Part shown: one piece after another, positions 2,199-30,104 of the stretch
Position numbering within the stretch: the stretch's first letter is position 1
How the letters are laid out: every line of letters begins with the position of its first letter
Made by a program: the position numbers and the translations under genes
Notes under the pieces: model-generated
Databases searched by the model: none
What the model saw: the letters and a program-made list of their open reading frames with translations, nothing else
What the model was told of the DNA's origin: nothing
Origin: Anaerolineae bacterium
Lineage (GTDB): Bacteria; Chloroflexota; Anaerolineae; Aggregatilineales; Phototrophicaceae
Reading direction: 5' to 3'
Length of the DNA stretch: 64,000 nt
NCBI GenBank assembly: GCA_025454495.1
Contig: JALOOI010000001.1
Span: forward strand, 18,415-82,414

Positions 2199-3680
2199 TC
2201 AGCGCGTTTCCACCCCGGCGATCACCCGGAAGCCGATGGAGGCATAACGGGCGTTGGGCTTGAGGGACAGGCGCTGTGTGGTGCGAATGCGCTTGAACGG
2301 GCTGGAATAGGAGCCGCCGCGGATGATGCGTTCCGGCTGTTCGCCCTCGGCCAGTTTTTGCGCCGGGGTGCGGGCGGTGGCGCACCATTCCCAGATATTC
2401 CCGGCTAAATCCAGCACGCCGAAGGGGCTGGCCCCCTTCACAAAGCGCGTGACCGGCGTGGTGCGGCGGATTTTGCTATCGGCACAGTTGCACAGCAGCT
2501 TATCAAAGCGGTTGCCCCAGGGATACTGCCGCCCGTCATCGCCCTGGGCCGCCCGCTGCCACTCTGCGTCGGTCGGCAGGCCAATCTTCAGCCCGGTGCG
2601 GTCGCTCAGCCAGTTGCAAAACGCCTGCGCCTCGTACCACGACACATTTACCCGCGGATGATCGCCATAGGCCACGCGGTCTTTCAGCGCCTGGGGGTGG
2701 TAGCTGCGCCATTCACAGGCTTCTGTGGCGAAATCCCACCAGCGGGTATCGCAGTAGCCATCCGGCGCATCCACAAACATTTTAAACTGGGCATTGGTGA
2801 TGGGGTATTTGCTCATCTGGAACGCGGCCACATAGTGCGTCACCCGGCGCTGTTCATATTCCAGCGTCACTTCGCCGGCCGGAATCTGGCACCAGTCCAG
2901 CATGGGGATGAGCAGCCGCGCACACAGTCCGGCGATATTGTCCGGGTCATAATCCGGGTAGCGCTGGCGAAAGGACTGGAAGGCCATGCAGCCCAGGTCG
3001 CGCATTTTGGGGCTTTTCACCAGCGCCTGAATGGAACCATAGGAGCGAATGGCATCGCGCTGGTAAATGTGCTTTTCCAGCAGCCTTTCCACGTGGCGCA
3101 GCATTCGCTCCAGGCTGATGAAATCATCGCTGATCTTTTCTTCGATGGCCCGGCGCAGCAGAAACGCGGCAGCATCGTAATCGCCACGGTCGATCAAGGC
3201 GGTGGCGCGGAGGATAACATTATCCTGCGAGACCGTGGGCACCGTGTCATCTTCGTATACGTCCGGTTCATCGTCCCCGTTGAGCGGCCGCCCGCCGAAA
3301 AAGCTGCGTTCCGCCAGGGTGATGGCGTTCAGCAGTTCGCGCACGGCCTGCACCGTGATCCCTTTGCTAAAATCCACATACTGAATCTGGTTTAGCTCCG
3401 GCGACAGTTCACACGGCACAATCAACACCGGGAAGATGATTTTGCGGGCCGCCACCGCCCGCCGGTATTCTTTCTGGCAGTATTCGGATTTGAGCGAATC
3501 GGGCGAGAGCAGATACACAAAGCCTTCACTGTGGGCAATTTCACGGCAAATCTCGTTCCACCAGTTGCTGCCCACATACACGCGCTGGTCATACCACACA
3601 TCATGAGCATCTGCCAGCAGTTCAATCAGTTGCGTACAAAAGCCCTGGTCAACCCGTGCGTAACTGATGAAAAGTTTCAT
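2199..3680 (-). CDS. TIR domain protein fused to a C-terminal FGE-sulfatase (SUMF1 / formylglycine-generating-enzyme-like) domain
   Basis: The N-terminus reads KLFISYARVD...SPDSLKSEYCQKEY (a TIR_2-like FxSY start plus the S..S..C..E region that carries the conserved glutamate). The C-terminus reads RVNVSWYEAQAFCNWLS...GLPTDAEWQRAA...GNIWEWC...RGGSY...IGFRV, typical of the FGE-sulfatase fold. I start at internal Met MKLFISY (3680), not the ORF start 3728. Confidence 0.75.
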   Translation of the reverse strand: MKLFISYARVDQGFCTQLIELLADAHDVWYDQRVYVGSNWWNEICREIAHSEGFVYLLSPDSLKSEYCQKEYRRAVAARKIIFPVLIVPCELSPELNQIQYVDFSKGITVQAVRELLNAITLAERSFFGGRPLNGDDEPDVYEDDTVPTVSQDNVILRATALIDRGDYDAAAFLLRRAIEEKISDDFISLERMLRHVERLLEKHIYQRDAIRSYGSIQALVKSPKMRDLGCMAFQSFRQRYPDYDPDNIAGLCARLLIPMLDWCQIPAGEVTLEYEQRRVTHYVAAFQMSKYPITNAQFKMFVDAPDGYCDTRWWDFATEACEWRSYHPQALKDRVAYGDHPRVNVSWYEAQAFCNWLSDRTGLKIGLPTDAEWQRAAQGDDGRQYPWGNRFDKLLCNCADSKIRRTTPVTRFVKGASPFGVLDLAGNIWEWCATARTPAQKLAEGEQPERIIRGGSYSSPFKRIRTTQRLSLKPNARYASIGFRVIAGVETR

Positions 3681-3848
3681 AAGGTAATCCCTGCCGATAT
3701 ATCGCTGTGATATAGACCAGTATAGCACCGAACCGAAAGTATGCCGGCGGGTGCGGGTGGCCGGGGGATGATATTACGGGATTGTATGATCTGCGCCTCT
3801 CTGGTAGTCTGCGGCGAAATTCAGGCACCGCAGCCAGGGAGACCACCT

Positions 3849-9256: not shown

Positions 9257-10539
9257 AGCGTAATCATCTGGCGGCGTTCCGGCCCCACGCTGACCATCGT
9301 CACCGGCACTTCCACCAGTTCGGCGATGCGCTCCAGGTAGCGCCGCGCAGCGGGTGGCAGGTCGGCGGCGTGGCGCACCCCGGAGAGGTCGGTGTGCCAG
9401 CCGGGCAGCGTTTCATAAATCGGGATCACCCGGTCAAGATCGTCGGTGGTGGGGGGCGGGTAGTCCAGCCGCTGCCCCTGATACTCGTAGGCCACCGCCA
9501 CCGGCAGTTCCTCAAAGCCGCTGAGGACATCCAGCTTGGTGAGGGCCAGTTCGGTGTAGCCATTCACCGCGGCCGAATAGCGCAGCATGACCGTATCCAG
9601 CCAGCCGCAGCGGCGCGGCCGCCCGGTGGTGGTGCCGAATTCGTCCCAGTAATTGGCCCCGGTGCCGCGCAAACGGTCGCCGATGGCGTTAGCCTGTTCG
9701 GTGGGCATGGGGCCGCTGCCCACGCGCGTGCTGAAGGCTTTGGCAATGCCCACAATGCGGTTGATGTGCAGCGGGCTGACCCCCAGGCCGGTGAGCGCCC
9801 CGCCCACCGTGGGCGAGGAACTGGTGACGAAAGGGTAGCTGCCGTGGTCAATGTCCAGCAGTGTGCCCTGGGCCCCCTCGCCGATGACGGTTGCGCCGGC
9901 CTTCAGGCGGTGATGCAGGTAAATGGCGGTCTCCTGGATGAAGGGTTGCAGCGTTTGCGCCGCCGCCAGGTAGTCCGGCACGCTGGCGCGGGCATCCAGC
10001 GGGGCAAAGCCGCCGCGCACCAGGTCCGCGCTGGCGCGTTCGATGGCGCTGTGCAGCGCATCGCCAAAGGCTTCTAAATCCAGCATTTGGCCCACGCGCA
10101 GCCCATCGCGCGAGGTTTTATCCATATACGCCGGGCCGATGCCGCGCAGGGTGGTGCCGATAGCTTCCGCCCCGCGTGCCTGTTCGCTGGCCCGGTCGCG
10201 GGCAATGTGCGCCGGCGTGATGAGGTGCGCCCGTGAACTGAGCACCAGGTTCTCCGGGGTGATGCTCACGCCCATGTCCCGGAGCTGGTTGATCTCTTTG
10301 ACCAGATTCACCGGGTTCACCACCATGCCATTGCCCATGACGGACACCACGCCCGGATGCAGCACCCCGGAGGGAATGAGATGCATTTTATAGACGGTGC
10401 TGCCAACGGCGACCGTGTGCCCGGCATTATCACCGCCGGCGTAACGGGCGACGATGTTCGCGTCAGCGGCCAGTGCGTCCACAAAGCGGCCTTTGCCTTC
10501 GTCGCCCCACTGTGCGCCGATAAGGACTGTGATCGGCAT
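9253..10539 (-). CDS. purA: Adenylosuccinate synthetase
   Basis: GDEGKGR and GGDNAGHTV motifs. Start at internal Met MPITVL with GGGGGAA upstream. The longer ORF extension was rejected. Confidence 0.9.
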   Translation of the reverse strand: MPITVLIGAQWGDEGKGRFVDALAADANIVARYAGGDNAGHTVAVGSTVYKMHLIPSGVLHPGVVSVMGNGMVVNPVNLVKEINQLRDMGVSITPENLVLSSRAHLITPAHIARDRASEQARGAEAIGTTLRGIGPAYMDKTSRDGLRVGQMLDLEAFGDALHSAIERASADLVRGGFAPLDARASVPDYLAAAQTLQPFIQETAIYLHHRLKAGATVIGEGAQGTLLDIDHGSYPFVTSSSPTVGGALTGLGVSPLHINRIVGIAKAFSTRVGSGPMPTEQANAIGDRLRGTGANYWDEFGTTTGRPRRCGWLDTVMLRYSAAVNGYTELALTKLDVLSGFEELPVAVAYEYQGQRLDYPPPTTDDLDRVIPIYETLPGWHTDLSGVRHAADLPPAARRYLERIAELVEVPVTMVSVGPERRQMITL

Positions 10540-10615
10540 GATTCCCCCATGAACCGCGTCATCAAACGGGGGCGCTGTGTGTGCCCCCGCCAGAGTATAC
10601 CACAAACTAAACGGG

Positions 10616-11272
10616 CTATGACGCATCCTGATAGCTGCTGCCCAGGCTGATCGTCACCTGGCCCAGCCCCCAGGTTTCCAGTTCGCCGCGACCGCCCAGG
10701 CACAGCGCCGACCCCGCGCCAATTTCAATGGAGATGGCCTCCGGCAGTTGCTGCAATACGGCCTGCACCGCCCGCGAGTCGTCCGCGCCGGTGACACCGG
10801 GTTCCATAAACGCACTTTTCACCCAGTCCAGCCCCGGCAGCAGGTCGCCGCTGTCGGCCAGGGCCCAGGTGCCAAAGAGGTTGATGGCCAGCCCTTCCAC
10901 CAGGATCAGCGCCCCGCGATCATACGCGGCCTGGAGGCCGGCCAGCGCCGCCCCCCGCAGCAGATGATGCAGCGTATTCACATGGTCATCGGTCTCAATG
11001 ACGATGAGGCTGGCTTCGGCAAGCTGCTTTTCCACCGCGGCCGGCGTTTCCTGTTCCAGGTTCAGCACGTAGCCGGCCAGCGCTCCCAGGTCTTCTAAAT
11101 CCTCCTGCAGCGCTTCGCCGCCATCCTGCGCCAGTGACAGATAAATCACGCTGTCGCCGACCCCGGCGCGGGCCAGGGCCCGGGCCCGCAGCGGGCTGCC
11201 GTCACTCTCGCCGCCGGAAAAAACCAGCCAGCCGCTGCCATCCTGCCAGTGCAATAATCCTCTGGATGGCAT
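10616..11272 (-). CDS. Class I glutamine-amidotransferase-like / peptidase S51 (dipeptidase E/cyanophycinase)-like protein
   Basis: LVFSGGESDGS...LIVIETDDHVN...LILVEGLAINLFG resembles an S51/DJ-1-like fold. Start at internal Met 11272, which avoids overlap with the upstream gene. Confidence 0.4.
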   Translation of the reverse strand: MPSRGLLHWQDGSGWLVFSGGESDGSPLRARALARAGVGDSVIYLSLAQDGGEALQEDLEDLGALAGYVLNLEQETPAAVEKQLAEASLIVIETDDHVNTLHHLLRGAALAGLQAAYDRGALILVEGLAINLFGTWALADSGDLLPGLDWVKSAFMEPGVTGADDSRAVQAVLQQLPEAISIEIGAGSALCLGGRGELETWGLGQVTISLGSSYQDAS

Positions 11273-17727: not shown

Positions 17728-17835
17728 AAGCAGTTTTGGGCAATAGTTAGCGATCACCGCTTTCATTATAGCAGGGGATGCCGCCGCCTGCGCGACCCGG
17801 CCGCAGGCACAAAAAAACCGGCGTAAGCCGGTCTG

Positions 17836-17907
17836 TGCCCCTGACAGGAATCGAACCTGTGCCTCTGCCTCCGGAGGGCAACGCTCTATCCGCTGAGCTA
17901 CAGGGGC
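17836..17907 (-). tRNA. tRNA-Arg (anticodon CCG)
   Basis: 72-nt cloverleaf folded by hand: acceptor GCCCCTG/CAGGGGC, D-arm GCTC-AGCGGATA-GAGC, anticodon stem TTGCC/GGCAG with loop CTCCGGA, T-arm ACAGG-TTCGATT-CCTGT, discriminator A. CCA is not encoded. Confidence 0.85.
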
Positions 17908-18112: not shown

Positions 18113-18880
18113 TCACGGCGTGGCGATGGCTTCGCGCAGGGATTGCGCCAGATGCTGCATGGCGGCCAGCCCGTGCTGGCTTTCGCGCAGCAGGGCGCTG
18201 GCGACGATGAAGCCGTTCACCATCTGGTTGATGGCGCGGGCGTGTTCCGGCTTGCTGATGCCGAAGCCCAGCACCAGCGGCATGGGCGTATAGCGCCGCA
18301 CCCGGGCGATGAAGTCTGGCAGCTCGGCCGAGAGGGTGTCCCGTGCGCCGGTGACACCCACCTGGGCGACGGCATAAATGAAGCCGGTGGCGACCCCGGC
18401 CACCAGGCGAATGCGGGCTTCGCTGCTGGTGGGTGCCAGGAAGAAGACCAGCGCCAGTCCTTCGCGCTGGCAGACCTCACTGAAGTAGTGGGCTTCCTCC
18501 GGCGGCAAATCCGGGATGATGAAGCCATCCGCCCCGGCGGCTTTTGCGTCCTGCACAAAGCGTTCCGGGCCATAGGCCAGCAGCGGGTTCACGTAGCTCA
18601 TCATCATCATGGGCTGCTGTAGATCATGCCCGCGCAGCGCGGCCACTGCCTCCAGGCATTTTTTGACGGTGGTGCCATTTTCCAGCGCTTTCTGGGTGGT
18701 CATCTGGATCACTGCGCCATCGGCGATGGGGTCGCTGAAGGGCATCCCGATCTCGAAAGCATCCACCCCGGCGGCGGCCAGGCGCAGCACCGCCTCCAGC
18801 GACGACTCATAATCCGGGTAGCCCACCGACCAGTAAGGCATGAAGGCGGCGCGTTTTTGCGTGGCGACGGTGCTGAACAT
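18113..18880 (-). CDS. trpA: Tryptophan synthase alpha chain
   Basis: TrpA profile (FMPYWSVGYPD...). Start at internal Met 18880. Confidence 0.9.
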   Translation of the reverse strand: MFSTVATQKRAAFMPYWSVGYPDYESSLEAVLRLAAAGVDAFEIGMPFSDPIADGAVIQMTTQKALENGTTVKKCLEAVAALRGHDLQQPMMMMSYVNPLLAYGPERFVQDAKAAGADGFIIPDLPPEEAHYFSEVCQREGLALVFFLAPTSSEARIRLVAGVATGFIYAVAQVGVTGARDTLSAELPDFIARVRRYTPMPLVLGFGISKPEHARAINQMVNGFIVASALLRESQHGLAAMQHLAQSLREAIATP

Positions 18881-19007
18881 GGTATGCAGGGCGGGCAGGC
18901 CCTGCGGGCGTGTGTGGCGATGGGTCACAGGGTTACGCTTTCAACCGATCATCGGGTTCAATAGATCATGGCGTTGTGTTATCTGGCGTACAGCGGCTGC
19001 CGGCCCC

Positions 19008-19961
19008 TCAGGCCGGCAGCCCATTCCCGCCTGCGCCCGTGCCGGGGCGCACCAGCCGGCGGATGGCCTCAATCACCAGTTCCGGCGCGTCCAGATGCAG
19101 TTCATGCTTCGCCTGCTCAGCGATGATCTGGCGGCTGTCCGCGCTGTACGTCGTTAAATCCTGCTGCAAGTCCTGCCACACCGGCGACAGCGCGCTTTTG
19201 GTGGGGGTGCGGGTGAGCACAATCAGCGGCGTATCGCCCAGGTCAAAGCTCAGCGGCTCCGCCCAGGTGGCATTGACCTCGTGGAACATGGTTTGCACGC
19301 TGCGCGGATGCAGCGCCCGGTGAGCCGTGAGCAGTTCCGGCGGCAGTTGCGCCAGATGGCCGCCGGGCGGGCCGGCCGTCAGCCGCTGGTAGCCGATGAG
19401 CGCTTTCAGGCGGGCTTGCCACAATTCGCGCAGTTCGCCGCGCAGGTTAATTTCCGGGCGCAGGTGCATTTGCGGGTGGGAAGCATCCACCAGCACCACG
19501 CCGGCCGTCTGTGCCCCGTAACGGTCGGCAAAGGCCAGCGCATAGAGGCCGCCCAGGGAATGGCCCACCAGCACATACGGCTCCGGCAGGTCAGCGGCTT
19601 TCAGCAGCGCGTGCAGTTCTTTGACGATTTTACCGGGCGTGCGCGGCCCATCGCCCCAATCGCTCCAGCCGTAACCGGCGCGGTCATACGTCACCACGCG
19701 GGCGAACTGCGCCACCTGCTGCTGAATGAGCCGCCATTCCGGGCAAAAGCCGCCCGCGCCACTCAGCAGCACCACCGTCAGTTGTGCGTGCTGCTGGCCC
19801 GCTTCGATGAGGTGCATCTGCCGGCCGCCGGCGTTGACCATGCGCCCCGGCGGTTTCAGCCGGCGGCGGGCCTGTTCGCCGGCCAGCCGTTCATACACCA
19901 CCCCCACGAAGGGCAGGCCCAGCAGCGCCAGCCCCACCAGCAGCAGGATCAGGCGTTTCAC
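19008..19961 (-). CDS. Alpha/beta-fold hydrolase, membrane-anchored, lying between trpB and trpA
   Basis: GHSLGG nucleophile elbow. Hydrophobic N-terminus. 4-nt overlap with the trpB stop. Confidence 0.7.
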
Positions 19962-21187
19962 AGGCGATCTCCCAGAATTTTAATCACTGTGTCCAGGTCT
20001 TTATCGCCCCGGCCGGAGAGATTCACCAGCAGCACCGAATCGCGGGACATGGTGGGCGCACGTTTGATGACCTCGGCGACGGCGTGGGCGGTCTCCAGCG
20101 CCGGGATGATGCCTTCCATCTCGCTGAGGGTGCGGAAGGCCGCCAGCGCTTCGTCATCGGTGGCGCTGGTGTAGTAAGCGCGTTCCAGCGAGCGCAGGTA
20201 GGCATGTTCCGGGCCGATGGAGGGGTAATCCAGCCCGGCGCTGATGCTGTGCGTCTCGCGCACCTGGCCATCGTCATCCTGCATCACATAGGAGCGCGTG
20301 CCGTGCAGCACCCCGGGCCGGCTGATGTTGAGATCGGCAAAGCGGGCGGCGTGTTTACCGCTGTCAATGCCGCTGCCGCCGGCTTCCACGCCGATCAAAT
20401 CCACGCTGTCATCGTTGCGGAAGGCGTGGAAGAGGCCGATGGCGTTGCTGCCGCCGCCCACACAGGCGATGCACACATCCGGGAGCTGCCCGGCCAGCGC
20501 CAGCATTTGCGCCCGCGCTTCCACGCCGATCACGCTCTGAAAATCGCGCACCATCATGGGGTAGGGGTGCGGCCCCAGCGCCGAGCCGAGCAGGTAGAAG
20601 GTGGTGCGGACGTTCGTCACCCAGTCGCGCATGGCCTCATTGATGGCATCCTTCAGCGTTTTGCTGCCGCTTTCCACCGGGATCACCTCTGCGCCCATCA
20701 GCTTCATGCGGAAGACGTTGGGCTGCTGGCGGGCCATATCCACGCTGCCCATGTACACATGGCATTCCAGCCCCAGCAGGGCGGCCGCCGTGGCCGAAGC
20801 CACCCCGTGCTGGCCTGCGCCCGTCTCGGCGATTACCCGGTGGCGGCCCATGCGCTTTGCCAGCAGCGCCTGCCCCAGGGCATTGTTGATCTTGTGGGCC
20901 CCGGTGTGGGCCAGGTCTTCGCGCTTGAGGTAAATTTTCGCGCCGCCAAGCTGCTCCGTCAGCCGGCGGGCAAAGGTGACGGGCGTGGGCCGGCCGGTAT
21001 AGGTTTGCTGGAGGTGGGCCAGTTCCGCATGAAAGGCCGGGTCGGCCATGGCCTGCGCGTATTCGGTGGTCAGTTCTTCCAGCGCCGGGACGATGGTTTC
21101 GGGCACAAAACGCCCGCCAAACGCGCCATAATAACCCCGTTCGGTGGGCACACTGGTGGTACCGGTTTTGATGTAAAAGTCGCTCAT
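19958..21187 (-). CDS. trpB: Tryptophan synthase beta chain
   Basis: [10 protein letters not shown]... and PLP-fold motifs. Confidence 0.92.
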
Positions 21188-22134
21188 TCTGGTTGATCTC
21201 GCTCACTGGTTGATAAACAGGTTGTTTTGACGAGGGCCATCCGGCCGGCAATTTTTGCCTGATCGTTTGGGTGATAGCGTTCCATATGCAGCGGAAACTG
21301 CTCATAATCCACCGCATAACTGAACGCCCGCAGCGCCTGAAAGGTGCGCCCGTAGACCGCGCCGCAGTCCAGCGCGACAAAGTCCGCGTCCAGCAGGGGA
21401 ATTTTCACCACCGGCAGCGGGCTATCGACGGCGATTTCGTACAGCAGCATCTCGCCTTCGGCCAGCGAGGGGCGCGGGTCGGTGACAATAATTCTATAGG
21501 GGTATGCGCCCGGCTCGCCCCCGGCGTAATCCGGCAGATGCGATAATACCGGCGGTGTTTCGTGCAGATAATCGATCTCCACCAGCGCCAGCCCGTTGTG
21601 CAGGGCCAGCGCCAGCCCGCTGTGCAGGGCCAGCGCCCGTTTTTCCCGGTACTGGAGCGCCCCGGAGCCGCCCGGTTTATTGGTGGGCGACAGCAGTTCG
21701 ATCCAGGTGATGGGCGTGCCGGCGCGGCCATCACGGCTGAGCGGGCGGATGGACAGGGCCATCAGGTAAATGGCCGGATCATCTTCCAGGGCCTGCGTCG
21801 CCGGCAGCGTGCGGGTGGGCAGCGATAGCACGGCCACGCCGGCCGGCAGCCCGGCCGGGGCTTCGGGTGTTCGCAGCACGCTGACATCCGGCCGCGGACG
21901 CGGTTTACGGCGGATGAGCACCGGCTCGCCTGTCTCCGGGTGCAGCTCGCGGATTTGCATCCCCTTTTCCAGATGCACCAGATAGCCCGCCGGCAGCAGC
22001 GCATCCAGCGCTTCTGCCAGGTGGGTGATGTGCGCGGCGTGGAATTCTTCCCATCCGGCCGGCTCATGCTGCAAATAGCTGTGCAGATGAGCATTAATCC
22101 CTGGATACTGGTTCTGGCGTTGATGAATGGCCAT
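21184..22134 (-). CDS. DUF4058-like protein (uncharacterised family), carrying an internal 8-aa tandem duplication
   Basis: The N-terminus ([12 protein letters not shown]...W..FH) and the ELLSPTNK block resemble the DUF4058 family as I recall it. The DNA carries a 24-bp in-frame tandem duplication. Confidence 0.45.
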
Positions 22135-22146
22135 GTCTGGCGCTCC

Positions 22147-22776
22147 CTATACCCACAACCCGCGCTCGCCGGCCAGGCAGCGCTGCGCCAGCAGCAGCAC
22201 CTTCAGGAAATAATGATCCTGATGGGGCGTAAAATCTGCCTGGCGCACGTTGATTGTGGCCGTGGCCAGCCCCACCGCCGGGCAGGGGATGTGCTCCACC
22301 GCCCCGGTGAACAGGCGCAGCGCCGGCTCCACCGGCAGCGCCACCAGCCCGGCCACTTCCTCCTGCTGATACGTGAACGTGCTCAGCGGCTGCTGGCACA
22401 CGTAAAAAAACACATCGGCCACTTCATAATCCAGCAGGCCGGCATACTGCGCGGCAGACACCCGCCGCCCGGCCGGGATGAGATCGGCAAAGTCCACCGG
22501 CAGCCCCAGTTCTTCGCGCACTTCGCGCACGCCATCGCGGATGGTTTCGCCGGCGGTGTAGTGCCCGGCTGCGCTCACATCCAGAAACAGCGGGAAGGTG
22601 GCTTTGGCGGCGCTGCGCTGCTGCACGATCAGCCAGTCCTGGCCGGCGGCATCGCGCTGGATGACGTGGCAGTTAAAAACCCGGTGCCAGTCACCCGCCT
22701 GATGCACCGCCGACCGGGCTTTGATGCCCAGGTGTGTCATATTCGCATCGTAGTAATCCAGCAGTTCTTCGCTCAC
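22147..22776 (-). CDS. NUDIX hydrolase
   Basis: Nudix box GHYTAGETIRDGVREVREELGL. Confidence 0.75.
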   Translation of the reverse strand: MSEELLDYYDANMTHLGIKARSAVHQAGDWHRVFNCHVIQRDAAGQDWLIVQQRSAAKATFPLFLDVSAAGHYTAGETIRDGVREVREELGLPVDFADLIPAGRRVSAAQYAGLLDYEVADVFFYVCQQPLSTFTYQQEEVAGLVALPVEPALRLFTGAVEHIPCPAVGLATATINVRQADFTPHQDHYFLKVLLLAQRCLAGERGLWV

Positions 22777-23441
22777 AGGGCCCCTTTCGCCGCCGCGATA
22801 AAAGCGTGCATTCTGGCTGCATCTTTGCGGCCGGGCGTGCCGGCTTCCACGCCGCTGGCCACATCCACCCCCCAGGGCGCAATGGACTGCACCCGTTCCG
22901 CGACATTTTCCGGGGTCAGGCCGCCGGCCAGCAGCACACGCGGCACGGCCGCTTTCACGGCCAGCGCCAGCGCCTGGCTGACCACCGCGCCGGTGCCGCC
23001 GCGCAGCGTGGGATGAAAGGCATCCAGCAGCAGCGACGGCACCCGGTCATCCGGCGAAAAGACCGGCTGGAAATACTGCACCTCCGCCAGCGCCGCTGCT
23101 GCGCTGTCCGGCTGGATGGCCTTAAACACCCGCCGGCCCAGCGCGGTCATCATCTCCACCGATTCATCGCCGCTGAGCTGCACAAAATCCAGCCCCACCT
23201 GGCGATAAATGCTGTCAATGTCGCTGTCGGTGGCATTGACGAAGACCCCCACCAGCACCGGGCAGGCGGGGCCGGTGGCCTGGCGCAGCGCCTGGCACAG
23301 GTCACGGGCGGCGGCCGGGGCCAGGTAACGCGGACTCTTCGGGTAAAAATTAAGGCCGATCAAATCTGCGCCCGCCTGCGCGGCCAGCAGCGCATCGTCC
23401 AGCGTGGTGATGCCGCAGATTTTAACCCTGGTGGTGTTCAT
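22773..23441 (-). CDS. trpF: Phosphoribosylanthranilate isomerase
   Basis: KICGIT...GLNFYPKSPRY motifs. Start at internal Met 23441. Confidence 0.85.
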   Translation of the reverse strand: MNTTRVKICGITTLDDALLAAQAGADLIGLNFYPKSPRYLAPAAARDLCQALRQATGPACPVLVGVFVNATDSDIDSIYRQVGLDFVQLSGDESVEMMTALGRRVFKAIQPDSAAAALAEVQYFQPVFSPDDRVPSLLLDAFHPTLRGGTGAVVSQALALAVKAAVPRVLLAGGLTPENVAERVQSIAPWGVDVASGVEAGTPGRKDAARMHAFIAAAKGAL

Positions 23442-23536
23442 GGTCACGCATCCTGGCCCGGCCCGCGGCCGGCAACGGTCGCTCTTTAGCCTGATGATCG
23501 TCCGGCCCGCCCGCGCCGGGCCGGCCACCGACCCTG

Positions 23537-24019
23537 TTAGATGAAGACGGCATCATCTTTACCGGCAAGCTGGCGCAGTTGTTCCGTCTGGCCGGCGTGG
23601 TACGCCTCATGGAAGGCCAGCCGGGACAGCCAGTAGAACAAAGTCTGGTCGCCCACGGGCTTTTCCAGGTCGGCCGGGTTGATTTTTTGCAGCGCCGCCA
23701 GCACGCGCACCTGGCTGGCATCCAGATCGGCCCGCAGTTTTTCCAGCGAACAGGCCTGATCGGCATTCTCGGCGGTGATGGGCGCGGAACCGCGGCCATA
23801 GGGGGCCGCTTCTTCCTTGCTCCACAGCGGCGGCTCACCCAGCATGAGCAGCAGCCGCCCGCGGCTGACGATGAGATGCCCCAGAATCCAGTTCAAACAG
23901 TTGCCCCGGAAGGGAAGCTGGCGCAGGCTGTCGGCGTGGCTGAGGTCGGCTGTTTGCGCCTTCAACACGTCATACGTAAACAGAAACTGCTGAATGATGA
24001 TATCTACCGGCTGATACAT
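23537..24019 (-). CDS. DinB/YfiT-like (DinB_2) putative metal-dependent hydrolase
   Basis: WILGHL and HEAYHAGQ histidine motifs. Confidence 0.6.
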   Translation of the reverse strand: MYQPVDIIIQQFLFTYDVLKAQTADLSHADSLRQLPFRGNCLNWILGHLIVSRGRLLLMLGEPPLWSKEEAAPYGRGSAPITAENADQACSLEKLRADLDASQVRVLAALQKINPADLEKPVGDQTLFYWLSRLAFHEAYHAGQTEQLRQLAGKDDAVFI

Positions 24020-24057
24020 GGCTGCTCCTCTTGATTTACTGCCCCGGCTGCTCCTGC

Positions 24058-24882
24058 TTAACCCGGCACCGGCTGCCCGCTAAAATCGCGCACGGATTGC
24101 GCCAGTGCGCCGGCCGTCACCAGCGCTTCGCCCACCAGCACCGCGCGGGCCCCGTGTGCGCCCATTTGCCGCACATCCGCCGCGGACAGAATGCCGCTTT
24201 CTGCCACCAGCGTCACTGTCGGCGGGGCCAGCCGCGCCAGCCGCGCCGTCACCTCCAGGCTCACCTGGAAGGTCTTCAAATCGCGGTTGTTGATGCCGAT
24301 GAGCGTCGCGCCCAGGCGCAGCGCCCGCTCCATCTCCGCTTCGGTATGCACTTCCACCAGCGCGGCCATGCCCTGTTCCAGCGCCAGCGCGTGCAGGTCG
24401 GCAAGCTGCGCATCATCCAGCGCCGCCACGATCAACAGGATGGCATCGGCACAGAAGGCCCGCGAAAAATACACCTGGTACGGATCAATGATGAAATCTT
24501 TACGCAGCACGGGCAGCGAAACCGCCTGGCGCACGCTGCCCATATCGCCAATGTGTCCCTGAAAGAACGACGTATCGGTCAGCACGGAGATGGCCGCCGC
24601 GCCGCTGGCGGCATAAGTGGTGCCCAGGGCCACCGGGTCGAAGTTTTCCACCAGCACCCCGCGGCTGGGCGAGGCCTTTTTCACCTCGGCGATGAGGGCG
24701 ATGGTATCGCGCCGCAGCGCCCCGGCAAAATCCCGCGGGCGGCGGTCGGCATCGGTGGTGCGGGTGATCTCCGCCTTGCGGATGACGACGTTGGCCGGCA
24801 TTTTCGCCTTATCCTGGGCGATGTCGGCCACTTTCTGCGCCAGAATTTTATCCAGGTAACTATCGGTTTTGACGTAATGCAT
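24058..24882 (-). CDS. trpC: Indole-3-glycerol phosphate synthase
   Basis: TrpC profile (IAEVKKASPSRG...LRKDFI...EVH). Confidence 0.88.
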   Translation of the reverse strand: MHYVKTDSYLDKILAQKVADIAQDKAKMPANVVIRKAEITRTTDADRRPRDFAGALRRDTIALIAEVKKASPSRGVLVENFDPVALGTTYAASGAAAISVLTDTSFFQGHIGDMGSVRQAVSLPVLRKDFIIDPYQVYFSRAFCADAILLIVAALDDAQLADLHALALEQGMAALVEVHTEAEMERALRLGATLIGINNRDLKTFQVSLEVTARLARLAPPTVTLVAESGILSAADVRQMGAHGARAVLVGEALVTAGALAQSVRDFSGQPVPG

Positions 24883-24897
24883 ACTGTCTCCTGCCTG

Positions 24898-25962
24898 TCA
24901 CGGGCGATGGTGGCCGCCGGGTTCATGGCGAAACTGGCGGCTGAAAGCAATCAGCGCGTCCAGCCGGTGCAGGGCCGCGCCGCTGTCAAGGCTGGTGCGG
25001 GCCAGGTCAATGCCGCTGGCTAAATCGGCGGCGGTGCCGGCGGCCACCAGAGCGGCCCCCGCGTTCAGCAGCACCACATCGCGCCGGGCATCGCGCACGT
25101 CGCCGGCCAGGATGCCGCGCAACATGGCGGCATTGGTGGCCGCATCGCCCCCGCGCAGCGCGGACACGCTCGCGCCGGCAAAGCCGTAAGCCAGCGGGTC
25201 CAGGTCGAAGGTGGTGACGGTGCCATCTTCCTTAAGCTGGCTGATGCGGTTGGGCCCGCTGACGGTCAGTTCATCCAGCCCGCCATAGCCATTCACGATG
25301 AGCGCCGAGCGCGTGCCGAGCGCCTTCAACACATGGGCGATCAGGTCGGTGAGGTCGGCGGCGAACACGCCCATCAACTGGCGGTTGGCCCCGGCCGGGT
25401 TGGTGAGCGGCCCCAGGATATTGAAAATGGTGCGAATGGCCATCTCGCGGCGCGGGTTGATGGCGAATTTCATGGCCGGGTGCAGCCGCACCGCGAACAA
25501 AAAGCCGATGCCCACTTCATCAATGCACGCGCCCACCTGTTCCGGCGTTAAATCCAGGTTCACTCCCAGTTCGCCCAGCACATCGGCGCTGCCGCACTGG
25601 CTGGTGGCGGCGCGGTTGCCGTGTTTGGCCACGCGCACCCCGGCCCCGGCGGCCACAAAGGCCACCGTGGTACTAATATTGAACGTGCCGGATTTGTCGC
25701 CGCCGGTGCCGCAGGTATCCAGCAGGTCGCCGGCGCTGCGTACCGGCACGCGGCTGGCTTTGTTCCGCATGGCGCGGGCGCTGCCGGTGATTTCTTCCGG
25801 CGTTTCGCCCTTCATCCGCAGCGCCATCAGGTACGCGCCAATCTGCGAATCGGTGGCGCTGCCACTCATGATCTGTTCCATCACCGCTTCGGCTTCTTCC
25901 GCCTGCAGGTGGCCGAAGCGGCTTAACAGCTCAATCGCCCGCTGAATGGTCATCTCGCTCAT
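24898..25962 (-). CDS. trpD: Anthranilate phosphoribosyltransferase
   Basis: GTGGDKSGTFNIST motif. Start at Met 25962, 7 nt after GGAGGAGGA. Confidence 0.9.
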   Translation of the reverse strand: MSEMTIQRAIELLSRFGHLQAEEAEAVMEQIMSGSATDSQIGAYLMALRMKGETPEEITGSARAMRNKASRVPVRSAGDLLDTCGTGGDKSGTFNISTTVAFVAAGAGVRVAKHGNRAATSQCGSADVLGELGVNLDLTPEQVGACIDEVGIGFLFAVRLHPAMKFAINPRREMAIRTIFNILGPLTNPAGANRQLMGVFAADLTDLIAHVLKALGTRSALIVNGYGGLDELTVSGPNRISQLKEDGTVTTFDLDPLAYGFAGASVSALRGGDAATNAAMLRGILAGDVRDARRDVVLLNAGAALVAAGTAADLASGIDLARTSLDSGAALHRLDALIAFSRQFRHEPGGHHRP

Positions 25963-26854
25963 CAGGGTATCCTCCTCCGGGCGCACTGCGATAGGAGTCG
26001 CGCCGGCGTGCTGCCATTAAGGCCTGCAATTCTTCCGGTGTATAGGGCGGCGTGCGCTGGTGCGCCATGCGGTGGCAGTTGGCGCACAGCATGGCCAGGT
26101 CTTCCACACGGCTCACATGGTCTTCATCCAGCGCGGCCATCTGCCGCAGGTGATGCGCTTCGATATAGTCGATGCCGTACACCGCGGCAAAGTCGAATCC
26201 GCATACCTGGCAGAATAAATGCCCGTGCTGCTGGCGATAGCGCAGCCGTGCGGTTTCCACCAGGCTGCGGTTGCGATGCCGCTGGCGCAGCGTGCGGACG
26301 ACGATTTTACCTTCGGCATAGGCGGCATCATCTTCCGTCAGTTCTAAAAAGTCCTGCGCCGTCGTGGGCACATATTCATCAGAATACCAGATGTCCTCCA
26401 GCATTCGGCCGGAGTCTTCCGTCAGGCGGCGCAGCGCCCGGAACTGGTTCGCGTCGATGCGCTGATCGGCCGTCAGCAGCAGCGTGTCCTGGGTGCGGCT
26501 GGCGAAGCGCAGCAGGGCGGCCGCCGGGGTGATGTCCACCTCGCGCAGCGGCTCCACCCGGTGCCGGTTGGCGATGGCGTACCAGTCCGCCTCGATCCAG
26601 TCACCGGGGTACGCGCCCACCAGGTCCTGGGCAATTTCGATGTGATCGACCACTGTTTCCACCAGAATCCGCCCGATCAGCAGCAGCCGCCCGATGTGGA
26701 TATTCACCAGCCACAGCACATCCCCCGGCTTCACGCGGGCCAGGTGGGGGCTGGCGGCATAGGCCGCGCTGCGCGTGGCGGCCAGGTTCACCCGTTCTTC
26801 CGGGGTCAGCTTCCAGTACAGCACATAATGGGCAGGTTGAAGATAACCGGACAT
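25931..26854 (-). CDS. HNH endonuclease domain protein with an uncharacterised N-terminal domain, inserted between trpG and trpD
   Basis: C-terminal CQVCGFDF...IEAHHL...LCANCHRMAH (HNH). The roughly 200-aa N-terminus is unassigned. Its 3' end overlaps the trpD start by 32 nt. Confidence 0.7.
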   Translation of the reverse strand: MSGYLQPAHYVLYWKLTPEERVNLAATRSAAYAASPHLARVKPGDVLWLVNIHIGRLLLIGRILVETVVDHIEIAQDLVGAYPGDWIEADWYAIANRHRVEPLREVDITPAAALLRFASRTQDTLLLTADQRIDANQFRALRRLTEDSGRMLEDIWYSDEYVPTTAQDFLELTEDDAAYAEGKIVVRTLRQRHRNRSLVETARLRYRQQHGHLFCQVCGFDFAAVYGIDYIEAHHLRQMAALDEDHVSRVEDLAMLCANCHRMAHQRTPPYTPEELQALMAARRRDSYRSAPGGGYPDERDDHSAGD

Positions 26855-26946
26855 GGCACCGCCACCCGTGGATGCAGCCTGTTCTAGTGTCCGATAATCA
26901 TAACACAGCCGTTCTAAAATCCCACACAGCCGCGCTCCGGGCGCGG

Positions 26947-27531
26947 TTACGCCGGTGCCAGCAAAAACACATTTTCCAGAAAGTTTTGCAGGATGCGAAT
27001 GCCATTTTGCGTCAGGATGCTCTCCGGGTGGAACTGCACCCCCACCACCGGGTGCGTGCGATGCCGCAGGCCCATAATTTCGCCGCTATCGGCCCGGGCG
27101 ATGATGCTCAGGCAGTCCGGCAGCGTGGCTTCCTCCACCACCAGGCTGTGATAGCGGGTGGCGATGAAGGGATCGGGCAGGCCGTCGAACAATGGATCGT
27201 GCTGATGGTGGATGAGGCTGGTTTTGCCATGCATCAGCCGGGGGGCGTGCGTCACCACGCCGCCGTATACTTCGCCGATGGCCTGGTGCCCCAGGCATAC
27301 GCCCAGGGTGGGGATGGCCGCGCCCAGTTCCCGAATGACCTGGCCGGAGATGCCGGCCTGGGCCGGGAAACCGGGGCCGGGCGAGATGACGATGTGCGAC
27401 GGGGCCAGCGCGTGAATTTCTGCCAGGGTGATGCAGTCGTTGCGGGCCACGGTGATCTGCGCCCCCAGTTCGCCCATCTCCTGCACGATGTTATAGGTAA
27501 AGCTGTCGTAATTGTCGATGACCAGAATCAT
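26947..27531 (-). CDS. trpG: Anthranilate synthase component II (glutamine amidotransferase)
   Basis: GVCLGHQ catalytic Cys region, HPES. Confidence 0.88.
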   Translation of the reverse strand: MILVIDNYDSFTYNIVQEMGELGAQITVARNDCITLAEIHALAPSHIVISPGPGFPAQAGISGQVIRELGAAIPTLGVCLGHQAIGEVYGGVVTHAPRLMHGKTSLIHHQHDPLFDGLPDPFIATRYHSLVVEEATLPDCLSIIARADSGEIMGLRHRTHPVVGVQFHPESILTQNGIRILQNFLENVFLLAPA

Positions 27532-28175
27532 GCCTGTTTCTCCATCTCCGGGAAATCGGTGGAGGGCATCCCCTCCAGATGCGTAACATCGTTGCGCTGC
27601 GTCAGCTTCCAGCCATCAGCGGTAGCCACCAGCGACGTGACCGACATATTGTTGAATTCCATCGAAAGCGCATCCAGTTCGGGCAGCAGCACGCCCAGCA
27701 GCGCCCGGATGGCGGTGGTGTGGGTGACGAGGCCGATGGTGTTTTCCGCCGCGCCGGCCACCAGGGCATCGAAAGCGGCTTTCATGCGGGCCGCCACCAC
27801 CCGGCGCGATTCGCCGCCAGGGATGATGTAGTCATCCGGGCTGGCCAGCAGCGCCTGATACTCGTCGCTGTACCACTCCATCACCTCCTGCTGCGTCAGC
27901 CCCTGCCAGATGCCGATATGCCGTTCCCGCAGGCGGGCATCCGCCACCGGCTGGATTGGCAGCCGGGCCGCCAGGATGTGGGCCGTCTCCTGCGCCCGGC
28001 GCAGATCGCTGGTGTACAGCGCCTGAATGCCAATGGGGCGCACAAACTGCGCCAGGCGCTCGCACTGCTGCCGGCCATGATCGTTGAGGGGAATGGCGAC
28101 CTGTCCCTGCCAGCGCCCCAGGCGGTTCCACCGGGTTTCGCCCGGCCGAATGAAAATCACCCGTTTGCTGCTCAT
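27528..28175 (-). CDS. Histidine phosphatase (phosphoglycerate mutase-like) family protein, lying between trpE and trpG
   Basis: The RPGETRWN motif, though the usual RHGE histidine reads RPGE here. Start at internal Met 28175. 4-nt overlap with the trpG start. Confidence 0.7.
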   Translation of the reverse strand: MSSKRVIFIRPGETRWNRLGRWQGQVAIPLNDHGRQQCERLAQFVRPIGIQALYTSDLRRAQETAHILAARLPIQPVADARLRERHIGIWQGLTQQEVMEWYSDEYQALLASPDDYIIPGGESRRVVAARMKAAFDALVAGAAENTIGLVTHTTAIRALLGVLLPELDALSMEFNNMSVTSLVATADGWKLTQRNDVTHLEGMPSTDFPEMEKQA

Positions 28176-28241
28176 GTCTGTGCTCCTGGTCTGTGCCTGC
28201 TGCGGGCTGTACGCCCGCCTGAACATGGCCCCGATTATGCC

Positions 28242-29756
28242 CTACATAAGGCCATTTTCGGCATAGGCAATCGCGGCGGCCAGGGCCCGCGCCTTGTTCA
28301 CACTCTCCTGGTGCTCGTATTCCGGCTCACTATCGGCCACGATGCCCGCGCCGGCCTGCACATACACGGTATCGCCGCGCACCAGGAAGGTACGAATGGT
28401 GATGCACATATCCATGGAGCCATCAAAGCTGAAGTAGCCCACCGCGCCGCCGTAGTGCCCCCGGCGCACGCCTTCCAGTTCTTCGATGATCTCCATGGCC
28501 CGCACTTTGGGCGCACCGCTGAGCGTGCCGGCCGGGAAGGTGGCCCGGATGAGATCAAAGGCGTTCATGGTGGGGCGCAGCCGGCCCTCCACATGGCTGA
28601 CGATGTGCATCACATGTGAATAGCGTTCCACCACCATCATTTCCGTCACTTTCACGGTGCCATAGTCACACACGCGCCCCAGGTCATTACGCCCCAGGTC
28701 AACCAGCATCACATGTTCGGCGCGTTCTTTGGGGTCGGCCAGCAGGTCAGCGGCATGGGACTGGTCTTCTTCCTCGGTGCGGCCGCGCGGGCGGGTGCCG
28801 GCGATGGGCCGGGTGCTGGCGATGCCATCTTCAAAGCGCACCATCATCTCCGGCGAGGCACCCACCAGGGTTAAATCATCGTTGAAGCGCAGCAGGAACA
28901 TATACGGCGAGGGATTGAGCGCCCGCAGCGCCCGGTACAGCATCAGCGGGGAGGCGCTGGTCTGGCGGCTGAAGCGCTGCGACATGACCACCTGGAATAC
29001 ATCGCCATTGCGGATGTACTCTTTGGCCGCCTGCACATTCTGGCAAAAGGCGGCCTGGCCAATGTTGGAGACCAGTTCGGCGTTCAGCGGGCGAATATCG
29101 GCATCCAGCGGCGGCAGGGGGTTGCCCAGGGCCACCACCACCCGGTCAATGCGATGCACGGCCTCATTGTAGGCGGCATCCGGGCTGCCGCGGTTAAAGG
29201 CATTGGCCAGCACGATGAGCTGGTGTTTGGCGTGGTCAAAGATGATGAGCGTATCCGGGATCATGAAAGCGGCATCGGGCAGATGCAGGTCATCGCGGGC
29301 GGTGGCGGGCAGTTTTTCAAAATAGCGCACAGCATCATAGGCCAGGTAGCCCACTGCGCCGCCCACCAGGCGCGGCAGCCCCGGCACGCGCACCGGGTGA
29401 TACTGCGCCAGCGCGGCCTGCACCACGCTCAGCGGGTCTTCGTCCGGCGACAGCGGGCGGGTGGTGGTTTTGCCGCCGCTGGTTTCGGTGAACTGGTTGT
29501 CCTGCACCAGCAGCACGGTGCCGGGGTTAACCCCGATGAAGGAATAGCGCCCCACGCGCTCGCCGCCTTCCACCGATTCCAGCAGAAAAGACGGCTGGCC
29601 GTCGGCGGTGAGCTTCAGGTAGACTGAAACCGGGGTTTCCAGGTCGGCCAGCAGGGTGCGATACACAGGCACCAGGTCGCCCTGCTGAAAATAGCGATGT
29701 ACGTCCTCGCGCGCGGGTTTAATGTCGGTGCGGATGCGGGTTGCCGGTGCGGCCAT
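28242..29756 (-). CDS. trpE: Anthranilate synthase component I
   Basis: TrpE/chorismate-binding profile. Start at internal Met 29756, with GGGAGGGAG 5-13 nt upstream. Confidence 0.9.
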   Translation of the reverse strand: MAAPATRIRTDIKPAREDVHRYFQQGDLVPVYRTLLADLETPVSVYLKLTADGQPSFLLESVEGGERVGRYSFIGVNPGTVLLVQDNQFTETSGGKTTTRPLSPDEDPLSVVQAALAQYHPVRVPGLPRLVGGAVGYLAYDAVRYFEKLPATARDDLHLPDAAFMIPDTLIIFDHAKHQLIVLANAFNRGSPDAAYNEAVHRIDRVVVALGNPLPPLDADIRPLNAELVSNIGQAAFCQNVQAAKEYIRNGDVFQVVMSQRFSRQTSASPLMLYRALRALNPSPYMFLLRFNDDLTLVGASPEMMVRFEDGIASTRPIAGTRPRGRTEEEDQSHAADLLADPKERAEHVMLVDLGRNDLGRVCDYGTVKVTEMMVVERYSHVMHIVSHVEGRLRPTMNAFDLIRATFPAGTLSGAPKVRAMEIIEELEGVRRGHYGGAVGYFSFDGSMDMCITIRTFLVRGDTVYVQAGAGIVADSEPEYEHQESVNKARALAAAIAYAENGLM

Positions 29757-29775
29757 AAGCTCCCTCCCATGAATC

Positions 29776-29804
29776 AAAAAGCCCTTACAGACTGCTGCAA
29801 GGAC
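29776..29804 (-). terminator. Intrinsic terminator of the T-box leader
   Basis: Minus-strand GUCCUU-(12-nt loop)-AAGGGC followed by UUUUU, immediately 3' of the T-box sequence and about 20 nt before the trpE ATG. Confidence 0.5.
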
Positions 29805-30068
29805 GAGAGGGACTCCCGCGGTGCCACCTTGCTTACCCCGCGTGGCGGGGTCACTTGGTGAGTACGGGCACGCAGGCCGATACTCTGCGCCAGAATCACG
29901 GTGCGCGGCCGGCACAGGCTACTCTCCTGCGGGGCAGGATTTCGACTGGCAGCTCCCCGGTCCATTCCACAGCGGCGTGTGTATCGCCCTTCCACCGTTC
30001 AGGCGACTCTCTGGACACCGTGTTGCTATGTACTCTTCCGGTTCTCAGCTTTTAAGGTGTTACGTTGT
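29776..30068 (-). promoter_or_regulatory. T-box riboswitch leader in front of trpE (candidate Trp specifier UGG)
   Basis: On the minus-strand transcript, AAGGUGGCACCGCGGGAG (complement of 29815..29830) matches the conserved T-box sequence. It lies directly 5' of a terminator hairpin plus U-tract (29776..29804). The leader is about 290 nt and has several UGGA triplets upstream. Confidence 0.6.
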
Positions 30069-30075
30069 TGAGGAT

Positions 30076-30104
30076 ACCATAACGCGAATTCGGATGGCTG
30101 TCAA
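30076..30104 (-). promoter_or_regulatory. Sigma70-like promoter for the T-box/trp transcript
   Basis: -35 TTGACA (complement of 30099..30104), 17-nt spacer, -10 TATGGT (complement of 30076..30081). Confidence 0.4.

Follow-up and report, generated by a model that had tools for sequence, protein, structure and literature searches.

A tryptophan (trp) operon of an Anaerolineae bacterium (Chloroflexota; Aggregatilineales; Phototrophicaceae) carries six non-trp genes among its seven trp genes, behind a single T-box. The operon lies in a 64,000-nt stretch of contig JALOOI010000001.1 (assembly GCA_025454495.1, positions 18,415 to 82,414 of the forward strand), which we call the window and whose positions we count from its first letter. 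The reading we favor, with some reserve, is that this T-box-switched operon has been a long-term carrier of its residents, which are old and vertically inherited and would be expressed by read-through and controlled only indirectly, as Price et al. (PMC1480536, PMC3658271) understand that term.

Thirteen genes behind one T-box

What does the operon consist of? All seven trp genes lie on the minus strand, as do all operon features described below, in the order trpE-G-D-C-F-B-A (Pfam matches and tblastn synteny). Six same-strand non-trp genes, making up ~40% of the operon's coding length, fill five of the six trp junctions and leave trpD|trpC empty. The initial annotation had listed the same genes in the same positions, and the Pfam assignments agree with it exactly. 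To set the start codons, we consulted relatives as well as an independent JGI gene call available for L161, a metagenome contig nearly identical to the window (loci outside the window are designated L plus a number). The trp genes are trpE (28242..29756), encoding anthranilate synthase component I (504 aa; Chorismate_bind, 5.5e-95, and Anth_synt_I_N, 1.8e-40); trpG (26947..27531), the glutamine amidotransferase (194 aa; GATase, 1e-57); trpD (24898..25962), anthranilate phosphoribosyltransferase (354 aa; Glycos_transf_3, 3.3e-88); trpC (24058..24882), indole-3-glycerol-phosphate synthase (274 aa; IGPS, 5.8e-85); trpF (22773..23441), phosphoribosylanthranilate (PRA) isomerase (222 aa; PRAI, 6.7e-37); trpB (19958..21187), tryptophan synthase beta (409 aa; PALP, 1.6e-41; 76-87% identical to its relatives); and trpA (18113..18928), tryptophan synthase alpha (271 aa; Trp_syntA, 2.9e-82). 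The first four of these proteins contain no Trp residue. The start of trpE is the ATG at 29756, which is preceded by GGGAGGGAG and agrees with the L161 gene call; the starts of trpD and trpF follow the same call.

Upstream of trpE sits a T-box leader (29796..30055) that matches Rfam RF00230 over its full length (model positions 1-219) with 98.9 bits, against a gathering score of 93, and that is the sole riboswitch-type Rfam match within the 64-kb window. Its specifier reads GAA-UGG-A, for Trp, and its T-box sequence, AAGGUGGCACCGCG, appears to bear the UGGC bulge. A sigma-70-type promoter (TTGACA-17 nt-TATGGT, 30076..30104; 10 of 12 matches in a consensus scan) lies ~20 nt upstream of the leader, and a terminator hairpin followed by UUUUU was found at 29781..29804 (10 pairs, loop of 4, tail TTTTTG). 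The 5' arm of this terminator shares GUCCUUG with the 3' strand of the antiterminator, so that the two helices, as read from the sequence, would be mutually exclusive. The single Trp-specifier T-box claimed at the outset is therefore present with promoter and terminator, and it is not peculiar to this genome: a T-box precedes trpE in 15 of the 16 relatives whose 5' region is present, and all 16 leaders aligned from relatives have GAATGG, and with it the UGG specifier, without variation. By the mechanism we propose, transcription would start at the sigma-70-type promoter and be gated by the T-box through transcription attenuation; uncharged tRNA-Trp would pair with the UGG specifier and the UGGC bulge, stabilize the antiterminator, and permit read-through into a ~12-kb transcript of 13 cistrons, the seven Trp enzymes and the six residents.

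Is the block a single transcription unit? In operon order its 12 junctions measure 66, -4, 92, -32, 15, 38, 95, -4, 12, -4, -4, and 79 nt; eight are thus 40 nt or shorter, in line with what had been stated for most of them, five are overlaps, and four span 66-95 nt. No intrinsic terminator was found in the operon junctions by consensus scan, and the promoter-like sites within the block number 3, against 3.1 expected from shuffled sequence. The five longest junctions have unexceptional fold z-scores (-0.6 to -2.9) and no hairpin followed by a U-tract, and Rfam returned no further structured RNA in the longer junctions. Because there is a single T-box, 13 tightly packed and co-oriented genes, no terminator, and promoter-like sites at the chance level, one co-transcribed unit running from the T-box promoter—as originally proposed, and as the search for internal promoters and terminators bears out—is the simplest reading, and the one we infer. 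The residents, having no recognizable promoter or terminator of their own, would be expressed by read-through and translated from their own Shine-Dalgarno sites or by translational coupling.

Where would such a transcript end? The first good terminator downstream of trpA follows a tRNA-Arg(CCG) gene (17815..17907 with the terminator, minus strand; tRNA at 17835-17907; ARAGORN and Rfam tRNA); it is a strong intrinsic terminator of 8 pairs with a TTTTTGTG tail, and it is the likely 3' limit of read-through. The tRNA gene has its own promoter (TTGTGT-17-TACAAT), and no tRNA follows trpA in 16 related trp loci. The gene aroQ stands beyond this terminator, with its own -10 box, and the label "supraoperon" given in the initial annotation is therefore unsuited to the window, where the trp block is not nested within co-transcribed aromatic genes. 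In two relatives, L172 and L174, genes for chorismate mutase, prephenate dehydrogenase, EPSP synthase, and shikimate dehydrogenase directly follow trpA. On the other side, the upstream neighbor of the operon in the window is a same-strand gene for a Wzy_C membrane protein. In L166, L168, L170, L172, and L173, a PolX-type polymerase gene (HHH_8/PHP) lies on the opposite strand upstream of the T-box, and past it, in L168, L170, and L172, lies a gene for an NAD-dependent DNA ligase.

Positions and inheritance of the residents

Do the embedded genes keep their places in other genomes? Relatives were gathered via TrpC from genome and metagenome collections, and via homologues of DUF4058, the HNH protein, and DinB_2. 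The sample comprises 27 Chloroflexota trp operons; as a set of genomic contexts it is small and non-random, and apart from near-identical contigs no relative closer than ~79% TrpE identity was found. Across these operons every embedded family holds its own junction, so that the synteny check proposed with the initial annotation comes out for conservation. At trpE|trpG, the protein with a histidine-phosphatase fold (hereafter HisPhos) is present in 15 operons (15/21). At trpG|trpD, the HNH protein is represented by 9 genes in 8 operons, and a tryptophanyl-tRNA synthetase (TrpRS) gene lies upstream of HNH in 4 (L007, L013, L170, L173). At trpC|trpF, DinB_2 is found in the window and L175, and B3_4 in 4 operons (L002, L003, L007, L175). 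At trpF|trpB, a 208-aa NUDIX protein occurs in 9, followed by GNAT in 3 and by DUF4058 in the window, L162, and L166. The junction trpB|trpA takes an alpha/beta hydrolase (6 operons), a protein of ~260 aa that we call U260 (9), a small NUDIX (5), or a short HisPhos (3). All five of these junctions accept genes, and trpD|trpC is occupied in none of 26 operons (spacer 5-172 nt); it may stay empty because trpD and trpC are tightly coupled in translation or constrained in stoichiometry. Gene calls made independently on related contigs put 38 embedded genes on the strand of the operon and 1 on the other.

The most heavily loaded operon, L173:4178-17205, has eight non-trp genes and almost no intergenic space, in the order trpE-HisPhos-trpG-TrpRS-HNH-HNH-trpD-trpC-trpF-NUDIX(Zn-ribbon)-NUDIX-219 aa-trpB-alpha/beta hydrolase-trpA. 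A more distant outgroup (L009, L010, L012) has compact operons, and in the clade many operons with a full set of trp genes are missing at least one resident. Uma2, GNAT, and SnoaL genes are embedded in the trp operons of other relatives (a Uma2 nuclease gene sits at trpG|trpD in L015), and a secreted SH3 protein is embedded at two different positions in L162 and L163. This turnover—SH3 at two positions, the Uma2, GNAT, and SnoaL genes, and an alpha/beta hydrolase that appears to be eroding—supports a passive-passenger reading. The window has an SH3 protein of its own upstream; we rejected the idea that the embedded SH3 protein is a relocated copy of it, as the two are not homologous.

Three further features of the related operons are recorded here. 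U260 has no Pfam or NCBIfam match and occupies trpB|trpA, where the window has the alpha/beta hydrolase; its loci are L002:15122-15901, L005, L006, L007, L008, L013, and L174, with more distant forms in L170:13234-14028 and L172. TrpRS and the free-standing B3_4 domain protein (which has the fold of the PheRS-beta editing domain) are tRNA-related, and the window's operon has neither. In L166, the trpC|trpF spacer (10691-11130) is AT-rich (GC 0.45 vs ~0.63 for the window's operon genes) and holds the sole opposite-strand open reading frame (ORF) called inside these operons, of 104 aa; we could detect no trace of DinB_2 or B3_4 in this spacer.

How old are the residents? Their pairwise identities follow those of the concatenated Trp proteins, with r = 0.87 for HisPhos, r = 0.79 for NUDIX, and r = 0.65 for HNH, the last from a small sample of 8 loci. 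Nearest neighbors coincide between resident and Trp-protein sets (the HNH pairs of the window and L166, and of L008 and L174, belong to the closest hosts), and the HNH-bearing operons group together on the Trp-protein tree; the phylogeny discordant with the host that is expected of a free-standing homing endonuclease was thus not seen in these 8 loci. Composition tells the same story. GC content at third codon positions (GC3) is 0.73-0.82 in the inserts, within the spread of the window (mean 0.77, sd 0.05). For the least saturated pair, the ratio of nonsynonymous to synonymous divergence (dN/dS) is 0.11 for HisPhos and 0.10 for trpC; in other pairs synonymous sites are saturated, and pN, at 0.13-0.34, is far below pS. 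One locus, L165, is identical to the window bar a 24-nt indel and is uninformative for dN/dS. Since identities track the Trp proteins, GC3 is typical, and dN/dS is low, the residents are old, vertically co-inherited, and under purifying selection. Recent horizontal acquisition, which the initial annotation had considered in the form of variable inserts with a different GC, was rejected: GC and GC3 fall within the genomic spread, and homologues stand at the same junctions in distant relatives.

We propose that each resident was inserted once, in operon orientation and at one particular junction, and would then have been inherited vertically with the operon across the clade, with occasional loss. 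Residents would be hard to lose if, as seems plausible, imprecise deletions harmed essential neighbors. An integron-like cassette array or repeat-mediated insertion was also considered and rejected; no direct or inverted repeats (attC-like) were found to be shared across the junctions, and the annotated genes of the window include no integrase.

Are the residents tuned to being made when Trp is scarce? Biosynthetic enzymes that are poor in the very amino acid they produce bear a known mark of selection for being made under starvation, one reportedly described by Alves and Savageau (2005). The Trp enzymes of the window contain 3 W in 2228 aa (0.13%), the six residents 24 W in 1524 aa (1.57%; Fisher p = 2.5e-7). 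Taken by protein over 26 operons, W content is 0.02-0.06% in TrpE, G, D, C, and A, 0.25% in TrpB, 0.54% in TrpF, and 0.52% in the embedded TrpRS; it reaches 2.63% in HisPhos, 1.60% in HNH, 1.13% in NUDIX, 2.20% in the alpha/beta hydrolase, 2.75% in U260, and 3.79% in GNAT, against a baseline of 1.28% in 33 other ORFs of the window. Because the W content of residents is normal to high while the Trp enzymes are nearly W-free, the residents do not appear to be tuned for synthesis under Trp starvation, not even those whose stay in the operon dates back to the origin of the clade.

The resident proteins

The gene at trpE|trpG (27528..28175) encodes the 215-aa HisPhos, which matches Pfam His_Phos_1 at 8e-53 and over its full length (profile positions 1-193 of 194). 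The fold named in the initial annotation, which called the protein a histidine phosphatase, is therefore sound; the catalytic identity is not. The nucleophilic histidine of the RHG motif, the mark of an active histidine phosphatase, is Pro in 13 of the 15 operon copies, which include the window's and read RPGET, and Ser in the other 2, which read RSGET; the rest of the phosphate pocket (Arg, Glu, and the second His) is kept. Because the nucleophile is replaced in all 15 copies, HisPhos should be no phosphatase but a conserved pseudoenzyme, and its annotation as "histidine phosphatase" or as "PhoE," the name that its relatives carry in their sources, misleads for a protein without the catalytic histidine. 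Among 1.84 billion representatives, six matches share at least 50% identity with HisPhos and all have RPGET; the next twenty that we read (<=43%) all have RHG. The best 150 matches from the same 1.84 billion representatives include no fusion to TrpE or TrpG, and the long ones are tandem HisPhos duplications. The closest solved relative is the phosphoserine phosphatase PspA (4ij5/4ij6, E ~4e-20). The HisPhos stop codon overlaps the trpG start by 4 nt (ATGA), and HisPhos would be translationally coupled to trpG. Of all residents, HisPhos is the strongest candidate for domestication into a role that is linked to Trp but does not involve catalysis.

The gene at trpG|trpD (25931..26854) is overlapped by the trpD start by 32 nt and encodes a protein of 307 aa. 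The initial annotation was right about its HNH domain (Pfam HNH, 5.9e-06), and the fuller identity is an EVE/YTH-like reader fused to a zinc-finger HNH nuclease (EVE-HNH): the N-terminal part has the PUA-like fold of EVE/YTH readers, and the C-terminal zinc-finger HNH has all catalytic residues. The metal-binding and catalytic residues, CxxC...HH...CxNCH...H, are invariant in 44 homologues. All nine homologue contexts (9/9; identities 65, 57, 55, 47, 38, 34, and ~33%) place the gene between trpG and trpD, an outcome with a probability of <0.01 were <60% of the family at that junction, the sampling being non-random; the two tandem copies in L173 are 45% identical to each other. PADLOC gave a weak ZorE-HNH match (E 0.0016), and neither NCBIfam nor PADLOC has a specific name for HNH, DinB_2, or DUF4058. 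The EVE survey of Bell et al. 2020 (PMC7641849), which lists EVE-HNH architectures, mentions no tryptophan or Chloroflexi context.

A second nuclease-like protein is encoded at trpF|trpB. The DUF4058 gene (21184..22134; 316 aa; Pfam DUF4058, 3.5e-22) specifies a Uma2/DUF820 (PD-(D/E)XK restriction-endonuclease-like) fold, which a fold search finds in common with TT1808 (PDB 1wdj) and Ava_3926 (PDB 3ot2). By sequence, DUF4058 has no match in the PDB, and hhalign against one Uma2 sequence gave a probability of 0.3%, which is not significant; Pfam assigns the protein to DUF4058 and not to the Uma2 sequence profile. Relative to the Uma2/DUF820 nucleases it is a separate Pfam family, ~100 residues longer. 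The family is not trp-specific, because a 50%-identical homologue lies inside an unrelated sugar-nucleotide operon; operon-embedded nuclease-fold genes may be a general habit of these genomes. In L164, another Chloroflexota contig, a Uma2 gene (591-1157) and a DUF4058 gene (10001-10897) each stand within strings of sugar-nucleotide/aminotransferase genes. Within the window's DUF4058 gene, positions 21582-21629 are a 24-nt tandem duplication (CCAGCGCCAGCCCGYTGTGCAGGG x2), in register, that adds 8 codons relative to L165, which comes from another sample; the population is thus polymorphic for the length of this gene, with the reading frame preserved.

The remaining three residents are as varied. 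Ahead of DUF4058 stands the NUDIX hydrolase (22147..22776; 209 aa; Pfam NUDIX, 1e-05), which we place in the IDI/YfcD-like branch on an NCBIfam IDI score of 1.8e-16, below the cut-off; its Nudix motif is intact, REVREELG keeping the conserved REx2EE glutamates. DinB_2 at trpC|trpF (23537..24019; 160 aa; Pfam DinB_2, 1.2e-10; MCU0510974.1) is a member of a broad family, and a 61%-identical copy adjoins the B3_4 gene at trpC|trpF in L175. The alpha/beta hydrolase at trpB|trpA (19008..19961; 317 aa; Pfam Abhydrolase_6, 8.3e-16) has an N-terminal hydrophobic anchor and, in the window, the GHSLGG nucleophile motif; the Ser is lost in L006 and L173, and the L162 protein is truncated to 102 aa, so the hydrolase appears to be eroding in sister lineages. 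The residents are thus heterogeneous—two restriction-type nucleases, a dead HisPhos, a NUDIX with its motif intact, a DinB_2 protein, and an eroding hydrolase.

Two genes elsewhere in the window drew our attention. An ORF at 2199-3728 (minus strand) joins TIR_2 (4.4e-24) at its N-terminus to an FGE-sulfatase domain (2.7e-44) at its C-terminus and may encode a defence or signalling protein, and a topoisomerase I gene at 43788-46235 (plus strand) has an N-terminal DUF5679 (1.8e-11) before its Toprim domain.

Proposed indirect control, its rivals, and known systems

What does T-box control mean for the residents? The initial annotation suggested that the charging of tRNA-Trp governs a set of accessory functions. 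The transcriptional half of that suggestion probably stands, through co-transcription; the other half, a coherent starvation regulon, is not supported as it was put, in view of the W content, the dead HisPhos, and the decay of the hydrolase. On the best reading of these genes and their relatives, T-box control of the residents would be real at the level of transcription but indirect, and not that of a purpose-built Trp-starvation regulon. Indirect control fits better because residents have a normal W content, HisPhos is dead, the hydrolase is decaying, two residents are restriction-type nucleases, and SH3 proteins ride along in relatives.

Several points weigh against this. EVE-HNH, in nine of nine contexts and down to ~33% identity, and RPG-HisPhos, in 15 contexts, are seemingly confined to trp operons; functional coupling predicts linkage of this exclusive and ancient kind, and plain passengers should turn up in other places as well. 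At the same junctions, relatives embed proteins with clearly Trp- or tRNA-related functions, TrpRS and B3_4. The argument from W content is indirect, and the invariant W48 and W156 of EVE-HNH may simply be structurally required. The EVE-HNH contexts were picked for long contigs and a spread of identities, not at random. Finally, consensus scans are blind to Rho-dependent termination and to non-canonical Chloroflexota promoters, and the four junctions of 66-95 nt could conceal signals.

Could the residents instead form an accessory Trp-starvation module whose T-box control is adaptive? HisPhos would then partner anthranilate synthase, as a regulator or a scaffold, EVE-HNH would act on modified tRNA or RNA, and NUDIX, DinB_2, and the alpha/beta hydrolase would clear labile or toxic pathway intermediates. 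In favor of such integration, the families hold their positions over deep divergence (Trp proteins down to ~66% identity) under purifying selection, EVE-HNH and RPG-HisPhos are found only in trp operons, HisPhos and the trpG start overlap by 4 nt, TrpRS and B3_4 share the junctions in relatives, and the closest solved relative of HisPhos is a phosphoserine phosphatase, serine being the co-substrate of TrpB. However, W is normal or high in the residents and depleted in the Trp enzymes and TrpRS; HisPhos without its nucleophilic His cannot be a phosphatase; the alpha/beta hydrolase has lost its active-site Ser or is truncated in relatives; many operons do without one or several residents and keep all trp genes; the two restriction-nuclease architectures have no known link to the pathway; and the junctions accept unrelated genes, such as that for the secreted SH3 protein. 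We consider a whole module of this kind doubtful, and the functional domestication of some residents, above all HisPhos, a serious rival to passive carriage.

A bolder form of the idea is that the clade's trp operon has recruited non-pathway proteins, HisPhos as a hitherto unknown ligand-sensing or assembly subunit of anthranilate synthase and EVE-HNH, whose gene often adjoins that of an embedded TrpRS, as a modified-base-reading nuclease for tRNA, RNA, or defence. We regard this as speculative and unlikely. If it were true, amino-acid starvation or phage-induced translation stress would switch on HisPhos and EVE-HNH, and the latter, when a defence nuclease, would be deliberately wired to a tRNA-charging sensor.

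It is improbable, in our judgment, that EVE-HNH and DUF4058 are selfish, homing-type nucleases that target conserved trp junctions and spread horizontally. EVE-HNH always sits at trpG|trpD and yet is missing from many related operons, L173 has it in tandem copies, a Uma2 nuclease occupies the same junction in L015, and DUF4058 and Uma2 genes also lie inside other operons; but HNH identity tracks the host Trp proteins, the closest HNH pairs belong to the closest hosts, HNH-bearing operons group on the tree, composition is not foreign, and there are no flanking repeats. Least probable of all is that the inserts have their own promoters or insulating terminators and that the T-box controls trpE alone or only part of the block: four junctions span 66-95 nt, a GC-rich hairpin spans the alpha/beta hydrolase stop codon, a weak promoter-like site (9/12 matches) lies at 23447-23419, and promoter rules in Chloroflexota are, to our knowledge, poorly known, but eight of the 12 junctions are <=40 nt and five of them overlaps, promoter-like sites are at chance, no junction hairpin has a U-tract, L170 and L173 pack the same genes with gaps of 0-14 nt or overlaps that leave no room for signals, and trpG, D, C, F, B, and A would lose Trp-responsive control.

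Passive carriage under an indirect switch, if it holds, has consequences beyond this genome. A biosynthetic operon can stably carry up to eight unrelated genes across a clade, each locked to one junction, and function prediction by guilt by association would mislabel several of these residents. The operon also offers two leads, a nuclease family seemingly restricted to trpG|trpD and a conserved pseudo-phosphatase between the anthranilate synthase genes, and each might uncover something new about Trp control or defence. In the literature we found no description of a clade-wide, position-locked set of embedded genes, of an EVE-HNH family tied to trpG|trpD, or of an RHG-less HisPhos family in trp operons, and no prior description under DUF4058, EVE with tryptophan, or T-box with Anaerolineae.

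How does the operon compare with known systems? In Bacillus subtilis, the aromatic supraoperon has the order aroFBH-trpEDCFBA-hisC-tyrA-aroE. The present operon is likewise a long co-directional array that links trp genes with others, and in L172 and L174 aromatic genes come after trpA; in B. subtilis, however, the additional genes stand on either side of the trp block and serve aromatic metabolism, whereas here they lie inside the block and are unrelated. HisPhos shares with branch 1 of the histidine phosphatase superfamily (PspA, PhoE, CobC) the full-length Pfam match and the phosphate-pocket residues, but it has Pro or Ser in place of the nucleophilic His. EVE-HNH has the PUA-like reader and zinc-finger HNH of the modification-dependent, type IV EVE-HNH restriction endonucleases (VcaM4I, PDB 6yex), and its activity is predicted; unlike the VcaM4I type, it is encoded not in a defence island but in a biosynthetic operon, at a fixed junction in every context.

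Among trp operons, T-box control in Chloroflexi has been reported for Dehalococcoides trpE (Wels et al. 2008, PMC2494555), and the T-box trp operons of Firmicutes and Chloroflexi (Lactococcus lactis, Dehalococcoides) have the same single Trp T-box with a terminator/antiterminator upstream of trpE and the same trpEGDCFBA set, whereas the operon described here embeds six non-trp genes, and those of relatives up to eight (L173). Insertions inside operons are much rarer than additions at the ends in Escherichia coli and B. subtilis (Price et al. 2006, PMC1480536), and by that model-organism standard the interleaving is indeed unusual, as the initial annotation held; the operon would be a natural example of indirect regulation and of operon growth from within, which is rare in model bacteria according to the same authors. 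Single non-trp genes at trpB|trpA or trpF|trpB are known and have been described as "morons" or possible helpers (Xie et al. 2003, via Kagan et al. 2008, PMC2395257). As described there, those inserts are isolated and consist of one gene, whereas here five of six junctions are filled, in a position-specific and clade-conserved manner, and at least two of the families are seemingly exclusive to the operon.

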